Below are positions 25,679 to 36,724 of a stretch of 64,000 nt of DNA, one piece after another. Under the pieces are notes generated by a model. That model was not told where the DNA came from. It was given only the letters and a program-made list of their open reading frames with translations, and did no database searches. The translations under genes were made by a program, and so were the position numbers. Each line of letters begins with the position of its first letter. Position 1 is the stretch's first letter. Source of the stretch: Escherichia coli (GTDB taxonomy: Bacteria > Pseudomonadota > Gammaproteobacteria > Enterobacterales > Enterobacteriaceae); the NCBI RefSeq assembly GCF_044324875.1, contig NZ_CP172185.1, one strand, 5' to 3'.

Positions 25679-26482
25679 TTACCTTTTACTCGATGATCGA
25701 TTGTTTAGCACCTCTCCCACAACCGGAGCAGCGGTAAATGCGTTTGGCCAGCCAGCATAGAAGGCGGCCTGGGTAACGATCTCACCAGCTTCCTCAACAG
25801 AAAGTCCATTATCCATTGCTCTATTGAGGTGATAGCCAATCTGCGCGCTCTGTCCGGATGCGATTAAGGCGCTGACCGTAATCAGGCTTCTGTCGCGGGG
25901 TTTCAGCGCGGGTCTTTGCCAGAGATCCAGGAAGAGTGGATCAGCAGTGAATTTAACCAGGCCTGGAGATATTGGGCCAACATTTTTTTCCACTGTCTCT
26001 GAACGCTGCTTTTCTGCTTCCTGATTGAGAGGAAGCAGGCCCGGAGAAGCTTCAGGAAGTGCATCTGCCGTGACGCCACGAGTTTCAAATACTGCTTTGA
26101 TCACGCTGACGGCTGACATTGCATTTGGCCAACCTGAGTAGAACGCCAGATGGGTAATGATTTCTGATAATTCCGCTGGCGTCACGCCGCTATCGAGAGC
26201 GACGTCAATATAGTGCTTAAGCTCGGCAGGCTGGTTGCGGGCAATCAGCATGGCGACGGTCACCACACTACGATCCCTCGGTGAGAGGGCGTCGCGTGTC
26301 CACAGATCTTCAGTAATAGCTTCGCGACCAAAGCGCGCGAGAGCCGGTGAGACGGAACGAATATCAGCTTCCGAAATCGCTGACGGTTCTATTTTCATCA
26401 TAGCTTTACCTCTTGTTTCCTCAGCATTGGCAAAATCAGAAATAACAAGCGACATAGCCGCTGCTGCAAGTACGCTTTTCAT
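25679..26482 (-). CDS. secreted tandem carboxymuconolactone-decarboxylase (CMD/AhpD-like) domain protein
   Basis: 267-aa ORF; signal peptide MKSVLAAAAMSLVISDFANA; two internally repeated ~100-aa CMD-like domains (DLWTRDALSPRDRS… and DLWQRPALKPRDRS…). Confidence 0.8.
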   Translation of the reverse strand: MKSVLAAAAMSLVISDFANAEETRGKAMMKIEPSAISEADIRSVSPALARFGREAITEDLWTRDALSPRDRSVVTVAMLIARNQPAELKHYIDVALDSGVTPAELSEIITHLAFYSGWPNAMSAVSVIKAVFETRGVTADALPEASPGLLPLNQEAEKQRSETVEKNVGPISPGLVKFTADPLFLDLWQRPALKPRDRSLITVSALIASGQSAQIGYHLNRAMDNGLSVEEAGEIVTQAAFYAGWPNAFTAAPVVGEVLNNRSSSKR

Positions 26483-26497
26483 GTTAATCCTTACTGG

Positions 26498-27223
26498 TCA
26501 ACGTTGCGGCTCCTGTTTGATTCCGCCTTTGTTACGAAGAAATACCGGTTTTACCGGGATTGCGTCCTTCCTGGCGCTCATATGCGCCGTTTGCCTGAGG
26601 TAATCCAGGATGTGCAGCGTTTGTCGGTGCAGTTGATAATCCTCCTCACTGGCGTAAATCTCATAGAAATACCAGCGTTTTGGAGTCTCTGAATCTGTAC
26701 CGGCATACATGGCTAACACGCCTTTCTCTACTTTGAGCGACTCGACCATTTCAGGAAGGACGATGTTTCTAAATTCGCTCTGAAATTCAGGCTTTACTTC
26801 GACGATCACCAGATTATTGATAGTTCGTTCATTCGGTATGATGTGTTTGTCGCCCAGAAACTGTGGCTCCAGGGTAATTTTCTTCTTCCTGTCAATAATG
26901 TCAGGTGCACGAGCAGCGAATGCTTTGTATGGGGCGGCATTGAGATGTTTGCGATAAGCACGCTCATTTTCATAGAGTTCGAACATGAATGCCTGACCTG
27001 AATTGTCGCTGCGTTGCAGGGCATACATCGCCAGTGTACCTGCTTCATGATCAACCGAAGCGGAAATCGTCTGTCTGGCCACGTCTGCAAAGTCGTTGTC
27101 CCGATCGGGTCTGATGCCGAGCTCGAAGATATTCATCTCCGACTTATTCGGCGCGTCCGGTTTTGTTGCAAAGACAGGGCTGCTTATTAGCATGCAAATT
27201 AAAAGCATAAAAGTCTTTTTCAC
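26498..27223 (-). CDS. secreted tandem ABM (antibiotic-biosynthesis-monooxygenase / quinol-monooxygenase-like) domain protein
   Basis: 241-aa ORF; signal peptide MKKTFMLLICMLISSPVFA; two ABM-like halves (LAMYALQ…FELYENERAYRKH and LAMYAGT…YEIYASEEDYQLH). Start is GTG at 27223 or ATG at 27208. Confidence 0.75.
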   Translation of the reverse strand: MKKTFMLLICMLISSPVFATKPDAPNKSEMNIFELGIRPDRDNDFADVARQTISASVDHEAGTLAMYALQRSDNSGQAFMFELYENERAYRKHLNAAPYKAFAARAPDIIDRKKKITLEPQFLGDKHIIPNERTINNLVIVEVKPEFQSEFRNIVLPEMVESLKVEKGVLAMYAGTDSETPKRWYFYEIYASEEDYQLHRQTLHILDYLRQTAHMSARKDAIPVKPVFLRNKGGIKQEPQR

Positions 27224-27338: not shown

Positions 27339-30317
<2,979 letters not shown>

Positions 30318-30319
30318 TG

Positions 30320-30892
30320 TTATTCTCCCTCTGGATTATTCACGACGGAATTGAGCAGTTCGACAAGCCTTGAAGCGTGTTCCCGGGCAAGCGTTTTTTG
30401 CTGCGCGATTTTGTCGGCATCCCGGTCGGCATAGCTGATACCGCAGGTATAAACCGGCGTCAGCAGCTCAAGATTGCACAGCCTTGCCGTGGTTTCGAAC
30501 GGAATAAGATACTCTTCAATGGTATGGCCAAAGAAACTGTCGACGGTATAGAGCTCCTCTGGCGCTCCCGTTGTAAAGGAGAGGATCAGCTTTTTACCGC
30601 CCAGTTTCGCCGTTGAGCCATGCGCGAAGCCGTGAACAAAGACCTCGTCCAGCCATTTTTTCATTAATCCTGGCAGCCCATACCAGGAAAAAGGGAACTG
30701 CCAGACAATCACATCGGCCCTGAGCAGGCTTTCCTGCTCCGCCGCGATGTTGAATTTGCCATCCGGATAGAGCCTGTCCAGACGACGAATCTCAACATCA
30801 GGAAGGGCGGTCTCCACTTCATCAAGAATAGTGGCATTGGCGACGGAATGGGTAAGCTCAGGATGACCTGAAATAACAAGGATATTTTTCAT
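30320..30892 (-). CDS. flavodoxin-like NAD(P)H:quinone oxidoreductase (KefG/KefF/MdaB-like)
   Basis: 190-aa ORF MKNILVISGHPE…; resembles KefG-type quinone reductases; stop is 2 bp upstream of the disrupted AKR start (same operon). Confidence 0.75.
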   Translation of the reverse strand: MKNILVISGHPELTHSVANATILDEVETALPDVEIRRLDRLYPDGKFNIAAEQESLLRADVIVWQFPFSWYGLPGLMKKWLDEVFVHGFAHGSTAKLGGKKLILSFTTGAPEELYTVDSFFGHTIEEYLIPFETTARLCNLELLTPVYTCGISYADRDADKIAQQKTLAREHASRLVELLNSVVNNPEGE

Positions 30893-31041: not shown

Positions 31042-31718
31042 CTACGCCGTGATGCCCAGTAAACGTTCTGCATTGCGAAATGCGATGGCCTCTTTTTCAG
31101 CCTTGTTGACGGGCAGACTGTCTATAAAGGTTTTTACACCGTCCAGGGTCTGATAGGGATAATCGACGGAGAACAGGATCCTTTCAGCACCCATTAACGC
31201 GTAGATAAACTGGAAGTGCGGCAGTGTTAGCATATGGCGGGGTAACGTAAACGTGTTCCTGGAAGGTTCTCGTTAGCGTGCGTGACAGACCCGTTGCAGC
31301 CAGTGGTAGGCTGTCATCAAGACGCTGGAGCCAGAAGGGTAACATCTCCCCCCAGTGGCCACTGATTACCTGCAGGTTGGGATATTTATCAAATGCGCCC
31401 GATAACATCAGCCGCAACAAATGGATCCCCGCTTCGTGATGCCAGCCCCAGGCAAACATAGAAAGCCTGGCGTTGACCTCTGCGCTGAAGCCCGTGAAGT
31501 AGGCCTGCTGTACGCTTTTAAGCGGTAACCCGGGATGAAGATAGAGTGGCACATTCAGTTTATTAAAGCGGGAAAGCAGGGAGTCGGTCAGGATTATGAC
31601 CATCAGCGACGGTTTTCCCCCAGTCGCCAAGGAAAGGTGCCTGCTCAAGCGCAACAGGCATACACGCTCGCCCTAACTCGCTGTCGAGATAATGTTCTTC
31701 GAGGCAAATGATTTTCAT
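31042..31718 (-). pseudogene. amidohydrolase-2 family (ACMSD / gamma-resorcylate decarboxylase-like) gene remnant
   Basis: Three consecutive frames carry pieces of one protein: MKIICLEEHYLD… (from 31718), …LYLHPGLP…GWHHEAGIHLLRLMLSGAFDKYPNLQVISGHWGEMLPFWLQR…, …ERILFSVDYPYQ…; at least two frameshifts and an apparently shortened N-terminal region. Confidence 0.7.
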
Positions 31719-31820
31719 ATTCTCACCATTCATACAAAGCAGTAAAAGTGATACAGATTAGAATCACCCGGAACAGCCCGTTCGTGTGTGTCATTCATGA
31801 CAGTCTGTTCCGGACGGGCT

Positions 31821-32768
31821 TTACACCATCGGTTTTTCCCAGGCGCCTCGTGTATCCACTCTGGTCTCTGCGGCGAGTTGTTCCAGCAGGATGATTTCCT
31901 CATCGCGTAACTGGATGTCTGAAGCGCAGGCGGCGTCCAGAACGTGATGGACTTTAGTCGCACCAACGAGGGGAAGGGTACCTTTCGCAATAGCCCATGC
32001 GATGGCTATCTGTGCCACGCTGGCATTCCTTTCGGCTCCCATTTTTTTCATGGCGGCGGTTAGTCTTTCTATCTGCGGCAGTACTGCGTTATAACTTTCG
32101 GCCCGGCCACTCCCGGCAGGCATGGGATGATTTGAATCATAACGACCACTGAGCGCGCCTTGCTCCAGGACCATGTAAGCAAAGAACGTGATGTTATTTT
32201 GTCGGCAATAATCAAGGATCCCGGCCTCTTCAGAAGCGCGATAGAGCAGGCTGTAGTGATTTTGTACTGCACTGAGGGAATAACCGGAAGCGTTAAGGAT
32301 TTCATTGGCGCGTCTGATTTGTGCCAGATTGTGGTTGGAAACACCTACGCGTTTTACCTTACCGCTTTGTAAAAGTGGGATCAATCCTGGCGTCCATTTT
32401 TCGACGTCGAGGGGATTATGGATCCAGTAGATATCAATCGCGTCCACGCCCAAGCGCCCAAGGCTGGCCTCAAGCATATCGCTGACAGGCTGCGCAGACT
32501 GCTTGTCCGCAATCTGCGGCGTGAATTTGGTGGATAAAATTATGTTCTCGCGAGGAAACTGACGGACTAATGCTCCCAGCGCAGTCTCGGAACTCCCCAT
32601 ACCATATACTGCTGCGGTATCCCAGAGATTGAGGCCCTTACTCATGGCCGCAGTGAACACTTCTGCCATCTGAGTATCAGAAAGATGATTACCAAAGACG
32701 GTGTCGCCGCCGGCAAAGCCTGTGCCCCAGGACCATGTACCTAGTGCGACTGGAGGTAGTGTTTTCAT
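31821..32768 (-). CDS. aldo-keto reductase (intact)
   Basis: 315-aa ORF MKTLPPVALGTWSWG… with AKR family features throughout. Confidence 0.85.
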   Translation of the reverse strand: MKTLPPVALGTWSWGTGFAGGDTVFGNHLSDTQMAEVFTAAMSKGLNLWDTAAVYGMGSSETALGALVRQFPRENIILSTKFTPQIADKQSAQPVSDMLEASLGRLGVDAIDIYWIHNPLDVEKWTPGLIPLLQSGKVKRVGVSNHNLAQIRRANEILNASGYSLSAVQNHYSLLYRASEEAGILDYCRQNNITFFAYMVLEQGALSGRYDSNHPMPAGSGRAESYNAVLPQIERLTAAMKKMGAERNASVAQIAIAWAIAKGTLPLVGATKVHHVLDAACASDIQLRDEEIILLEQLAAETRVDTRGAWEKPMV

Positions 32769-32829: not shown

Positions 32830-33531
32830 TTAAGCTGTCCGGCGGAGTGCATTTAACAGCGCCACACCAACCCCATGTGCTGAAGCGGGATTCTGCCCCG
32901 TGATAAGGCGATCGTCGGTAACCACGTTTTCAGACCAGTTTGGAGCTTCATGATAAAGCGCACCATGCTCGCGAAGTGCGGTTTCAAGCAGGAAGGGAAC
33001 CACATCTGTTGTGTGAACTTCTTCCTCTTCCTTGTTGGTAAAGGCCGCCACATTTTTCCCTTTTATCAGGTATTCGCCGCTACTGAGTTTTGCGTCAACC
33101 AATGCCGCAGGCCCGTGGCAGACGGCTGAGACAATCCCATCACTTTCATACACTTCGCGGATAATACGCTGGGCATCCTGATTATCACGGAAATCCCACA
33201 TGGTCCCATGACCACCTGCAAAGAAAACTGCGCTGTAATCGGCACCTTTCAGCTCGGATAACGCAGGTGTTGTTGCCAGGCGCTGCTGAAAATCGGTTTC
33301 GTTCCAGTACCAGGCGTTAACAGGGTCGCTGAGGTTAAATCCATCCACCGGTGGCTGCCCCCCGCGAATACTGGCTATTGTTGTTTTTATTCCGGCATCT
33401 TCCAGTACTTTCAGCGGATGAGTCAGCTCGGCCAGGAAAAAACCGGTTGGTACACCGGATGCGCCTTTAATCGGATGGCTGGAAACGACACATAGCACTG
33501 GTTTATATGCAGGTTTCATATCGGTCCTCAC
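32830..33531 (-). CDS. DJ-1/PfpI family protein (class I glutamine amidotransferase-like; glyoxalase/deglycase candidate)
   Basis: 233-aa ORF with the nucleophile elbow …SAVCHGP… typical of DJ-1/PfpI proteins. Confidence 0.8.
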   Translation of the reverse strand: MRTDMKPAYKPVLCVVSSHPIKGASGVPTGFFLAELTHPLKVLEDAGIKTTIASIRGGQPPVDGFNLSDPVNAWYWNETDFQQRLATTPALSELKGADYSAVFFAGGHGTMWDFRDNQDAQRIIREVYESDGIVSAVCHGPAALVDAKLSSGEYLIKGKNVAAFTNKEEEEVHTTDVVPFLLETALREHGALYHEAPNWSENVVTDDRLITGQNPASAHGVGVALLNALRRTA

Positions 33532-33975: not shown

Positions 33976-34875
33976 ATGAATAACGCTCTTTATAACCAGA
34001 TTCGCATCTTCCAGAGCATTGCGCGGGAGGGCAATATTTCGGCAGCCGCAAGGAAACTGGAAATTACGCCTCCCTCCGTCAGCAATGCACTAAAGCTGCT
34101 GGAAGAGTATATCGGTCATCCGCTTTTTGTGCGTACGACCCGCCGTATAGAGCTGACGGAAACCGGTCAATTATTGCTGGAACAGACCGCTGCGGCGGTG
34201 GAGTCGCTGGAAAACTCACTTGAAAGCATTCGCGACCAGCATCAGGAGCCCTCAGGGATGGTGCGAATTACGCTCTCGCGTTTTGCCTACCTGTTAATTC
34301 TTAAGCCTGCGATGGCAGAATTCTGTCAGCAATATCCGGGTATACAGTTAGAAATTTCGGTCTACGACGGTACCGTGAATATCATCAAAGAGCGTTTTGA
34401 TCTGGGGATCCGTTTTGGCGATATTCTTGAGGGAGGGGTGGTGGCCCGACCGTTAATGAAACCGTTTCGTGAAGGATTATATGCATCCTCAGCGTATCTC
34501 TCCCGACATGGAACGCCTGAAGTGCCGGCAGATCTCTGTCATCACCAGCTGATTGGTTACCGTTTTATCACCAACAACCGCATCCTTCCGCTGCTCCTGA
34601 ACGATCGCGGTGAGCAGTTGACCGTTGAGATGCCGGGGCAGTTAATCAGCAACGATATTGACGTTATGGCAGACGGGATCCGTAACGGGCTGGGAATTGG
34701 GCGCTTGTTTGAGCCTGTCTGGCAGTTACAGCCGGACAGGGAGCGCTTTATTCCGGTGATGGAGAGCTACTGGAAAACCTACCCGCCAGTGTATCTCTAT
34801 TACCCCAAAAACGCGGGTAAAACGAAAAGAGTGAAGGCCCTGATTGATTTTCTGATATCCACTACGGGGCGATAA
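33976..34875 (+). CDS. LysR-family transcriptional regulator
   Basis: 299-aa ORF with N-terminal LysR HTH (…IFQSIAREGNISAAARKLEITPPSVSNALKLLEEYIGHPLFVR…); divergent from the minus-strand enzyme cluster across a 136-bp intergenic region. Confidence 0.88.
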   Translation: MNNALYNQIRIFQSIAREGNISAAARKLEITPPSVSNALKLLEEYIGHPLFVRTTRRIELTETGQLLLEQTAAAVESLENSLESIRDQHQEPSGMVRITLSRFAYLLILKPAMAEFCQQYPGIQLEISVYDGTVNIIKERFDLGIRFGDILEGGVVARPLMKPFREGLYASSAYLSRHGTPEVPADLCHHQLIGYRFITNNRILPLLLNDRGEQLTVEMPGQLISNDIDVMADGIRNGLGIGRLFEPVWQLQPDRERFIPVMESYWKTYPPVYLYYPKNAGKTKRVKALIDFLISTTGR

Positions 34876-35273: not shown

Positions 35274-36458
35274 TTACTTAATACCGTATTCTCGGCTTAA
35301 CCGGCCGTGCAACCTCAACACATTGGTTTCAACTGCCGTCACCACGTTCTCCGGAAAATCTGTCGGTAATGAAGTCTTCACGTTATCCAGTGCTGCCGGA
35401 ATCATTCTGGCAAAGTCACTCAGGATTTCATGCATCTGCACTTCCGGAAATTTCAGCAACTTTGCTGTCGCCAGAAAATGTCGCGGATAAATTTTATCGA
35501 TTGCCGTTTTTTTGCCTTTGGATGCGTTAAGCCCCATTGCCAGTTTGAACCACTGGAACACCTGAAACTTCATAAAATCATAGCGATCTTTCAGCGCCTC
35601 GCTGGACCCCATCAAAAAAGCCATGATCCGCGCGATGCCTGGGCCTCCATCTGATTCATATTTCACCGATGAAGTTAAACCGAATGTCTGACACATATCC
35701 TCCTGTGGCAAGCGAAGTAAAACCGTTCGCTCAGCATTCCAACGCCTGTCAAAACGTTCGACCGCTAACGCGCGCACATTCCCCGCTTTAATGATTTCTG
35801 CGTCCGGCACATTCAACCCAAGTTCTTTCGCCAGCAGCAGACAGTAATACTCATTATCAACGCTTTGGCTGAGATCGAGCGTCGCATTGGGCTGCCTGAT
35901 TTCGCCAATCGGTAATTTAATGATGTGCGTCGTCGGCGTTATTCCTTTCGGAATGCACCAGTCATTGCCTATTCTGAGCAGCGCTGTCTTCTCCTGCGCG
36001 CCAGCAACCGAGATGCGAAAGTCATTTTCTTCTCTAATCATGCCCAGAGGGATATCTGCTTTATAAGCCGTTAATACTTCTTCAAGTCTGGCTTCAGTAA
36101 GCTTTTCCCATGCCATTATCGGATGCGTTACGGTTTCGTCTTCGGGTATTAACGTCACGGCACCAACGCTGTCTCGCCCTATTTCTGACAATAAATCAAA
36201 CGGTTGTCTGGATTTGGCATGATAACGTTTAACGATCCGGTCACGTACAATCGGGCTATCGGGTAACAGATTATCGAAGAAGTTAAATACGGCATCAGAG
36301 GTGATATTCCCCCTCTGCAATGGCAGCGAAAGTGACAACGGTCTGGCATAACGGCTGGCTAACCACTCCGGTGCATACTTAAAGGTGTGCGCGCCGTTGG
36401 CTAACTTCGTTAACTCGCCTACCCGCTGGTTGTTCATCCAAGTGACAAGTTTAGGCAT
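35274..36458 (-). CDS. hipA: HipA serine/threonine kinase toxin, internally deleted allele (394 aa)
   Basis: Starts MPKLVTWMNNQRVGEL… at 36458, overlapping the hipB stop by 1 nt. Sequence reads …DFMKFQVFQW-FK-LAMGLNASKGKK…; the segment containing the GATDGHAKNF catalytic motif is absent. ORF track start 36515 is upstream of the hipB stop and is rejected. Confidence 0.85.
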   Translation of the reverse strand: MPKLVTWMNNQRVGELTKLANGAHTFKYAPEWLASRYARPLSLSLPLQRGNITSDAVFNFFDNLLPDSPIVRDRIVKRYHAKSRQPFDLLSEIGRDSVGAVTLIPEDETVTHPIMAWEKLTEARLEEVLTAYKADIPLGMIREENDFRISVAGAQEKTALLRIGNDWCIPKGITPTTHIIKLPIGEIRQPNATLDLSQSVDNEYYCLLLAKELGLNVPDAEIIKAGNVRALAVERFDRRWNAERTVLLRLPQEDMCQTFGLTSSVKYESDGGPGIARIMAFLMGSSEALKDRYDFMKFQVFQWFKLAMGLNASKGKKTAIDKIYPRHFLATAKLLKFPEVQMHEILSDFARMIPAALDNVKTSLPTDFPENVVTAVETNVLRLHGRLSREYGIK

Positions 36459-36724
36459 TACCACTCCAGATCTTGCTGTTCTGTTGATTCTGGCGAGGCA
36501 TTTTTCGCGTCGCATAGCGTCATTGAGAGTTCAAGCGACTGTAAAATCTTAAAAAATGTCGTGAGCGTGGTATTGTCAGGGTTGTTTTCGAAATTGGAAA
36601 TTGTCGCCTGCTTAATACCGATTTTTTTCGCCAGCTCGCTCTGCGTCCAGCCATTTTGCTGACGAACCAGTTTCATTGCATTCGCTAATTGCGTTGGGTT
36701 ATAGATCTTCTGAAAGCTCATCAT
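36458..36724 (-). CDS. hipB: HipB antitoxin (Cro/C1-type HTH)
   Basis: MMSFQKIYNPTQLANAMKLVRQQNGWTQSELAKKIGIKQATISNFE…, 88 aa; ORF track start at 36742 would lie inside the operator region. Confidence 0.92.
   Translation of the reverse strand: MMSFQKIYNPTQLANAMKLVRQQNGWTQSELAKKIGIKQATISNFENNPDNTTLTTFFKILQSLELSMTLCDAKNASPESTEQQDLEW

Follow-up and report, generated by a model that had tools for sequence, protein, structure and literature searches.

A very probably non-functional remnant of an Amidohydro_2 gene, carrying two deletions, in an apparently eroding LysR-regulated island of Escherichia coli

The described enzymes that lie closest to the gene examined here include a group of decarboxylases of known structure. 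The group is made up of gamma-resorcylate (2,6-dihydroxybenzoate) decarboxylase (gamma-RSD; 2DVT, 4QRO/3S4T), the 5-carboxyvanillate decarboxylase LigW (4QRN, 4ICM), and 2,3-DHBA decarboxylase (2,3-DHBD; 6M53, 7A19). An intact ortholog of the E. coli gene matches these enzymes with E-values of 1e-41 to 1e-45 (phmmer) at ~30% identity. Its AlphaFold2 model (P0003; 24-sequence alignment, pLDDT 88, pTM 0.90) is a (beta/alpha)8-type barrel, and 2DVT, 4QRO, 4QRN, and 6M53 match the model with Foldseek E-values of 1e-24 to 1e-26 and a TM-score of ~0.8. In an alignment with LigW (4INF), the His of the ortholog's LYLHPG falls on the His of PLYIHPA, and the Asp of VDYPY falls on the Asp of AMDYPYQ. These two LigW residues, His188 and Asp314, are taken here to be metal ligands from the LigW and gamma-RSD structures. 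The intact ortholog has the fold and the active-site architecture of the gamma-RSD, LigW, and 2,3-DHBD decarboxylases. Its clade is nonetheless separate from this group and nearer to a protein of Staphylococcus aureus.

That protein is 3NUR, a putative amidohydrolase deposited as a structural-genomics entry. It is the best match to the intact ortholog in sequence (E 1e-68, residues 7-348) and, against the model, in fold (Foldseek E 2e-29, TM 0.80/0.91). Both proteins possess the EEH, HP, GHWGE, and DYPY motifs, although they are only ~35% identical. The window copy, in contrast, has no counterpart to ~119 of these residues and is split over three frames. A literature search found no paper on 3NUR as an amidohydrolase or decarboxylase.

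Other members of the superfamily are further away. Salicylate decarboxylase (E 1e-32) follows after the gamma-RSD/LigW/2,3-DHBD group. ACMSD (2-amino-3-carboxymuconate-6-semialdehyde decarboxylase; 2WM1, 2HBV) has the same superfamily and fold (TM ~0.74) but is much more distant (E 1e-15 to 1e-6, ~20% identity). IDCase and 4-oxalomesaconate hydratase are likewise much further from the intact ortholog, and the Foldseek order agrees. An earlier, sequence-only reading of the E. coli locus had described the gene as ACMSD- or gamma-resorcylate-decarboxylase-like; the second name agrees with the phmmer matches to the decarboxylase group, and the first applies at superfamily level only (E 1e-15). A scan of the intact ortholog against NCBIfam gave no family and no equivalog name. 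Judging by these relatives, the ancestral protein probably used a metal to catalyze the non-oxidative decarboxylation, or else the hydration, of a hydroxy-aromatic acid.

The window analyzed here is a 64,000-nucleotide stretch of E. coli DNA (contig NZ_CP172185.1). On its minus strand is what is very probably a non-functional remnant of an Amidohydro_2 enzyme of ~345 aa, left by two deletions in an eroding, LysR-regulated accessory island. The remnant measures 692 nt, compared to 1,050 nt in intact orthologs, and is composed of the following features.

31042..31733, minus strand: amidohydrolase-2 pseudogene remnant, delimited by alignment with intact genes (L007, L008, L009) and by PF04909 matches
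31586..31733, minus strand: N-terminal piece, ancestral codons 1-49 and the first base of codon 50
31583..31588, minus strand: junction of the 356-bp deletion, with a 2-nt GA microhomology; the exact point is ambiguous by 2 nt
31235..31585, minus strand: middle piece, read in a second frame and covering 117 ancestral codons (169-285), with LYLHPG (His185), WGWHHE, and GHWGE
31234..31235, minus strand: 2-bp (GG) deletion in codon 286, TCAGGTATG to CCA--TATG, between 31235 and 31234
31042..31234, minus strand: C-terminal piece, from the last base of codon 286 to the stop in a third frame, with the metal-ligand Asp310 in VDYPYQ

The open reading frames listed for 29.5-33.5 kb include three overlapping minus-strand ORFs in three frames that represent the N-terminus, the middle, and the C-terminus of the enzyme. 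ORF 31563-31733 contains the N-terminal piece and encodes MNGENMKIICLEEHYLD (in a longer reading, MNGENMKIICLEEHYLDSELGR); the EEH metal-ligand motif is found at codons 12-14, and the frame runs to a stop at 31563. The middle piece, with NVPLYLHPG, WGWHHEAG, and ISGHWGE, is in ORF 31184-31654, and the C-terminal piece, with ERILFSVDYPYQ and the final residues LLGITA, is in ORF 31042-31233. Against the PF04909 (Amidohydro_2) profile, the middle piece scores 35.8 bits (E 1e-8, profile positions 128-192 of 289) and the C-terminal piece 32.3 bits (E 1e-7, positions 227-289 of 289). Each exceeds the Pfam gathering cut-off of 26.4 bits for this profile, whose coverage by the remnant starts only at position 128 of 289. 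The ORF list and the two profile matches bear out the sequence-only reading, which had placed a decayed amidohydrolase-2 gene in three frames at these coordinates.

When conceptually repaired, the protein is 97-98% identical to intact 349-aa PF04909 proteins, an identity that puts homology far beyond chance. On sequence grounds, the remnant is a member of the Amidohydro_2/ACMSD superfamily by descent. The start at 31718 gives the MKIIC N-terminus annotated in the Enterobacter mori ortholog; the 349-aa gene calls begin at an ATG of the same frame that lies 15 nt further upstream (31733). The window DNA retains all four ligand motifs. In ancestral numbering, EEH (12-14) is in frame 1, the LHP of LHPG (184-187) and GHWGE (244-248) are in frame 2, and DYPY (310-313) is in frame 3. 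No single uninterrupted frame for a complete (beta/alpha)8 barrel is left, and the metal-binding and catalytic residues are spread over three frames, so they never occur in one polypeptide. As a pseudogene, the window copy would not be a working member of the gamma-RSD/LigW/2,3-DHBD group.

A search with the repaired protein returns more than 3,000 homologs, of which the full-length versions are 344-349 aa. Intact orthologs with 94-98% identity are found on an E. mori plasmid and in Rahnella, Serratia, and Pantoea, and the species representatives with an intact gene are Rahnella rivi (94%), Pantoea, Rouxiella, and Serratia. The closest three (P0001-P0003; 349 aa) are 97-98% identical to the window pieces and have the same MNGENMKIIC start. 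Their contigs keep the gene order of the island and carry two extra genes, encoding a DUF1330 protein and a second flavodoxin-like protein. An annotated intact cluster is located on 214-kb E. mori plasmids. The left flank of a 40-kb contig, represented by L007, has no match to E. coli. None of 5,426 complete E. coli genomes has an intact copy; the copies with 97-98% identity sit on contigs with non-E. coli flanks or on E. mori plasmids. Compared with each other, the intact amidohydrolase orthologs have dN/dS values of 0.12-0.14.

The full-length copy that is most similar to the window at this locus is found in L009 (4214-5263). It reads LYLNPG, with Asn in place of the His metal ligand. The AKR1 and ABM genes of the same cluster are split, and the L009 lineage may likewise be undergoing decay.

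Aligned at the nucleotide level with three intact genes, the window differs from them in length at two sites only. Lesion 1 is a 356-bp deletion from position 2 of codon 50 to position 3 of codon 168, with its junction at 31586|31585. As 356 equals 3 x 118 + 2, 118 2/3 codons (~119) are gone, and a single event accounts for both the codon loss and the first frameshift. The earlier expectation of at least two frameshifts and a separate loss of ~100 codons stands in the number of shifts; the loss and the first shift are one event. In the AlphaFold2 model of P0003, residues 50-168 hold three strands (83-88, 122-124, 152-155) and four helices (58-66, 70-79, 100-117, 133-146). With three of the eight barrel strands deleted, a folded, active enzyme would not be possible.

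In the intact gene, both endpoints of lesion 1 are directly 3' of an 8-bp direct repeat, ATCCTGAC (ATCCTGAC-CGA... and ATCCTGAC-TATGA...). The repeat and the GA microhomology point to illegitimate or slipped-strand recombination as the likely origin of the deletion. Simple slippage from one ATCCTGAC to the other was considered and rejected as an inexact fit: it predicts an in-frame loss of 354 bp, and the observed loss is 356 bp with GA microhomology. All aligned E. coli alleles carry lesion 1. The missing 356-bp segment, used as the query of a sensitive blastn search, had no match in the 5,426 complete E. coli genomes. Synonymous divergence among the E. coli remnant alleles reaches ~0.08, which makes the deletion older than much of the allelic diversification.

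Lesion 2 is the 2-bp deletion in codon 286. A probe across this site finds the deletion in ~364 of 463 E. coli copies (~79%); 50 of these are identical to the window, and 314 match over an 81-nt span at 98.8%. The remaining ~99 copies (~21%; 92.8%, 83-nt span) and all intact orthologs keep the GG. The 2-bp deletion is the later of the two. The cumulative shifts, 2 and then 1 (mod 3), result in three reading frames. Neither lesion site has a homopolymer run.

Beside lesion 2, alleles that carry the 2-bp deletion have six substitutions within ~60 nt (31180-31240, ancestral codons 285-302). Divergence in this patch is ~10%, compared to a background of 1-2%; it may be a recombination patch or a set of clustered mutations. 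A compensating +2 indel was considered for strains in which the locus has a 903-bp span and a single CDS (e.g., 097H6). The 2-bp deletion is found there as well, and the differences lie in indels elsewhere and in the annotation.

Further lesions are found in other strains. NRZ14408 (L006, NZ_CP158426.1, 1644-2231) has a second deletion of 91 bp that adjoins the 356-bp one. The combined loss of 447 bp (149 codons) restores one ORF of 195 aa, annotated as WP_024190054.1. In 2012C-4221 (L020, NZ_CP027437.1, 2069-2710), the LysR, DJ-1, and AKR1 genes and most of the amidohydrolase remnant are deleted, and only a 63-aa C-terminal ORF remains, adjoining hipA.

Among the 5,426 complete E. coli genomes, 472 carry the locus; in 462 of these, the match spans at least 80% of a 901-bp probe and crosses the deletion junction. 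The island is carried by ~9% of E. coli. Many complete chromosomes that were sequenced independently, in different laboratories and from different hosts, match the 901-bp stretch around the remnant at 100%; those of strain C4, swine ETEC, and O139:H1 strains are among them. In RefSeq, two of the fragments are CDSs named "amidohydrolase family protein" and the third is a "hypothetical protein"; none has a pseudogene flag. For L001 (NZ_CP010121.1, 6143-6819), PGAP gives WP_001314732.1, WP_001314733.1, and WP_001327998.1 as separate proteins. The middle CDS in RefSeq is 139 aa (420 nt), and the annotated fragments and ORF boundaries vary between strains with the same lesions. The deleted, E. coli-type gene also occurs, at 97% identity, on a 3.6-kb contig of a "Collinsella sp." MAG (L018, JAIJJM010000311.1, 1575-2263); this contig probably entered the MAG as contamination from E. 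coli.

Selection on the remnant was assessed from variants in six E. coli alleles only. These alleles have 24 segregating changes, 13 nonsynonymous (N) and 11 synonymous (S). Under a neutral model, more nonsynonymous changes would be expected in this total (p 0.01-0.06), which does not differ significantly from the 15 N : 22 S of the neighboring genes (Fisher p 0.29). The 14 changes seen in E. coli only divide into 9 N : 5 S, a ratio that agrees with neutrality (neutral P(N) ~0.76; p = 0.24). In the other 10, the derived state is also found in intact outgroup genes; these are 4 N : 6 S, and they are the reason that the total falls below the neutral expectation. The synonymous excess could reflect homoplasy or recombination together with low power, and weak residual constraint keeps a small probability. 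H14N, which turns EEH into EEN, is found in four of the six alleles; the window keeps the His. H14N, W38R, and D310G, the last in one allele, belong to the 14 changes seen in E. coli only, and all three are at family-invariant columns.

That the gene is really intact and only appears broken through a sequencing or assembly error is extremely improbable. The sequence-only reading had offered errors in a homopolymer-rich region as an alternative to real decay, and the sites of the lesions contradict it, as they are not homopolymer runs. A loss of 356 bp is no base-calling error, the window allele recurs unchanged in many complete genomes of independent origin, the 2-bp deletion is common to ~364 genomes, and the missing 356 bp occur in none of the complete E. 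coli genomes. Real gene decay, the other option in that reading, is supported by lesions that are reproducible across independent genomes and by the existence of intact orthologs. The reverse polarity, in which the ancestor had the short form seen in E. coli and other genera gained the 356 bp by insertion, has a probability close to nil: distant homologs, S. aureus 3NUR and LigW among them, can be aligned with the segment residue for residue, and the segment contains many invariant columns of the family and builds core strands of the barrel. Programmed recoding, by which ribosomal frameshifting would join the pieces into one protein, deserves equally little credence. In its favor, the pieces lie in collinear order with slight overlaps, but the joined product would still lack 119 core residues. 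The second shift is absent from ~21% of alleles and from all intact orthologs, which marks it as a mutation and not a conserved signal, and no slippery sequence was noticed when the aligned junctions were read by eye.

It is also very unlikely that the fragments have kept a function, be it as truncated or split proteins (e.g., the 139-aa CDS or the 195-aa NRZ14408 allele) or through a transcript or regulatory element that the operon needs. RefSeq does call CDSs here, ~460 genomes still have the remnant at almost its full length, a single frame is restored by the second deletion in one strain, and the 13 N : 11 S ratio is below neutral expectation. Against these points, three of eight barrel strands are gone and the metal ligands lie in three frames. 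His14 is replaced by Asn in four of six alleles and Asp310 by Gly in one. ORF boundaries differ among strains, the remnant is mostly deleted in some, and the E. coli-specific ratio of 9 N : 5 S fits neutrality. There is similarly a slim chance that the remnant is kept for cause in the ~460 genomes, where its transcript or short N-terminal ORF might be required for expression of the flavodoxin-like gene, or a truncated product (e.g., the 195-aa one) might serve a non-enzymatic role. The overall N:S ratio of 13:11 is the only hint of such a retained role.

The island that contains the remnant is located, in strain C4, between a fimbrial operon and hipBA. Its order is LysR, a small ORF, DJ-1/PfpI, an aldo/keto reductase (AKR), the amidohydrolase fragments, a flavodoxin-like NAD(P)H oxidoreductase, a further AKR, an ABM-domain gene, and a carboxymuconolactone-decarboxylase-family (CMD) gene. 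In the window, the neighbors of the remnant are as follows.

33976..34875, plus strand: LysR-family regulator, divergent
32830..33519, minus strand: DJ-1/PfpI-family gene, intact
31821..32768, minus strand: aldo/keto reductase AKR1, upstream neighbor, intact (dN/dS 0.10-0.13)
30320..30892, minus strand: flavodoxin-like NAD(P)H oxidoreductase (PF02525), downstream neighbor, intact (dN/dS 0.14-0.23 vs intact clusters)
28173..30126, plus strand: IS21-family element, 1,954 bp, with istA (28259-29281), istB (29278-30060), and a 5-bp CCATT target duplication
25679..27223, minus strand: distal ABM-domain (quinol monooxygenase-like) and carboxymuconolactone-decarboxylase-family genes

Comparison with intact orthologous clusters, which the sequence-only reading had proposed, finds the same gene order in L007, L009, L010, and the E. 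mori plasmid. Against intact clusters, the neighboring genes have dN/dS values of 0.08-0.27, which suggests that they stayed under purifying selection. The operon around the remnant had been described as otherwise intact, and it is not. The IS21-family element, with terminal repeats TGTCACGAACGG and TGTCAACGACGG, splits the next-but-one gene, the second AKR (AKR2), after ~codon 63 and leaves remnants at 30111-30317 and 27339-28202. The element is absent from strain C4, which is otherwise 99.9% identical to the window. Its junction occurs as one piece in none of the complete E. coli genomes; two apparent full-coverage matches are joined pieces ~0.5 kb apart. The DUF1330 gene and the second flavodoxin-like gene are missing as well, here and in every other one of the five E. 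coli islands compared. A deletion of ~952 bp, with its junction at ~27325, removes the former and most of the latter from the window and from strain C4; the segment is present in L007 (10809-11760), L009, L010, and the E. mori plasmid. In three more E. coli matches, the DUF1330/flavodoxin-like span is shorter by the same ~1.3 kb. Taken together, the island as a whole appears to be eroding in E. coli at several points.

Near the island, hipA (35274-36459, minus strand) has an in-frame deletion of 138 bp (46 codons) at ~35548 compared to hipA of strain C4. The deletion removes LIGATDGHAKNFS...GAGIHISD, a stretch that we take to include the HipA catalytic loop, and hipB is apparently present upstream. 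The HipA toxin of the window is probably kinase-dead.

The very probable history of the locus is that of a decayed enzyme gene. The enzyme would have belonged to a LysR-regulated island of redox- or detoxification-type genes (DJ-1/PfpI, two AKRs, the flavodoxin-like oxidoreductase, ABM, and CMD). A 356-bp deletion shifted the frame and would have taken three barrel strands, and a later 2-bp deletion in codon 286 shifted it again in about four fifths of the copies. From there, the remnant would have drifted, with substitutions at invariant or catalytic positions and, in some strains, more deletions.

The remnant is an ordinary textbook pseudogene and carries little biological weight. Like ordinary bacterial pseudogenes, which arise by short-repeat deletion and later frameshifts, it combines disruptive lesions with an intact ortholog in other genomes, secondary lesions particular to single lineages, and an IS insertion in a neighboring gene. 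It is mildly notable only in its age, its wide retention, and its lack of a RefSeq pseudogene flag. For E. coli, the remnant means that the amidohydrolase step was dispensable soon after the island spread in the species, or even before. The separate annotation of WP_001314732, WP_001314733, WP_001327998, and their allelic variants inflates pan-genome counts. Both lesions are convenient as lineage markers, and so are the 91-bp secondary deletion and the IS insertion specific to this strain. For the family, the substrate of the intact-ortholog clade near PDB 3NUR is worth determining.
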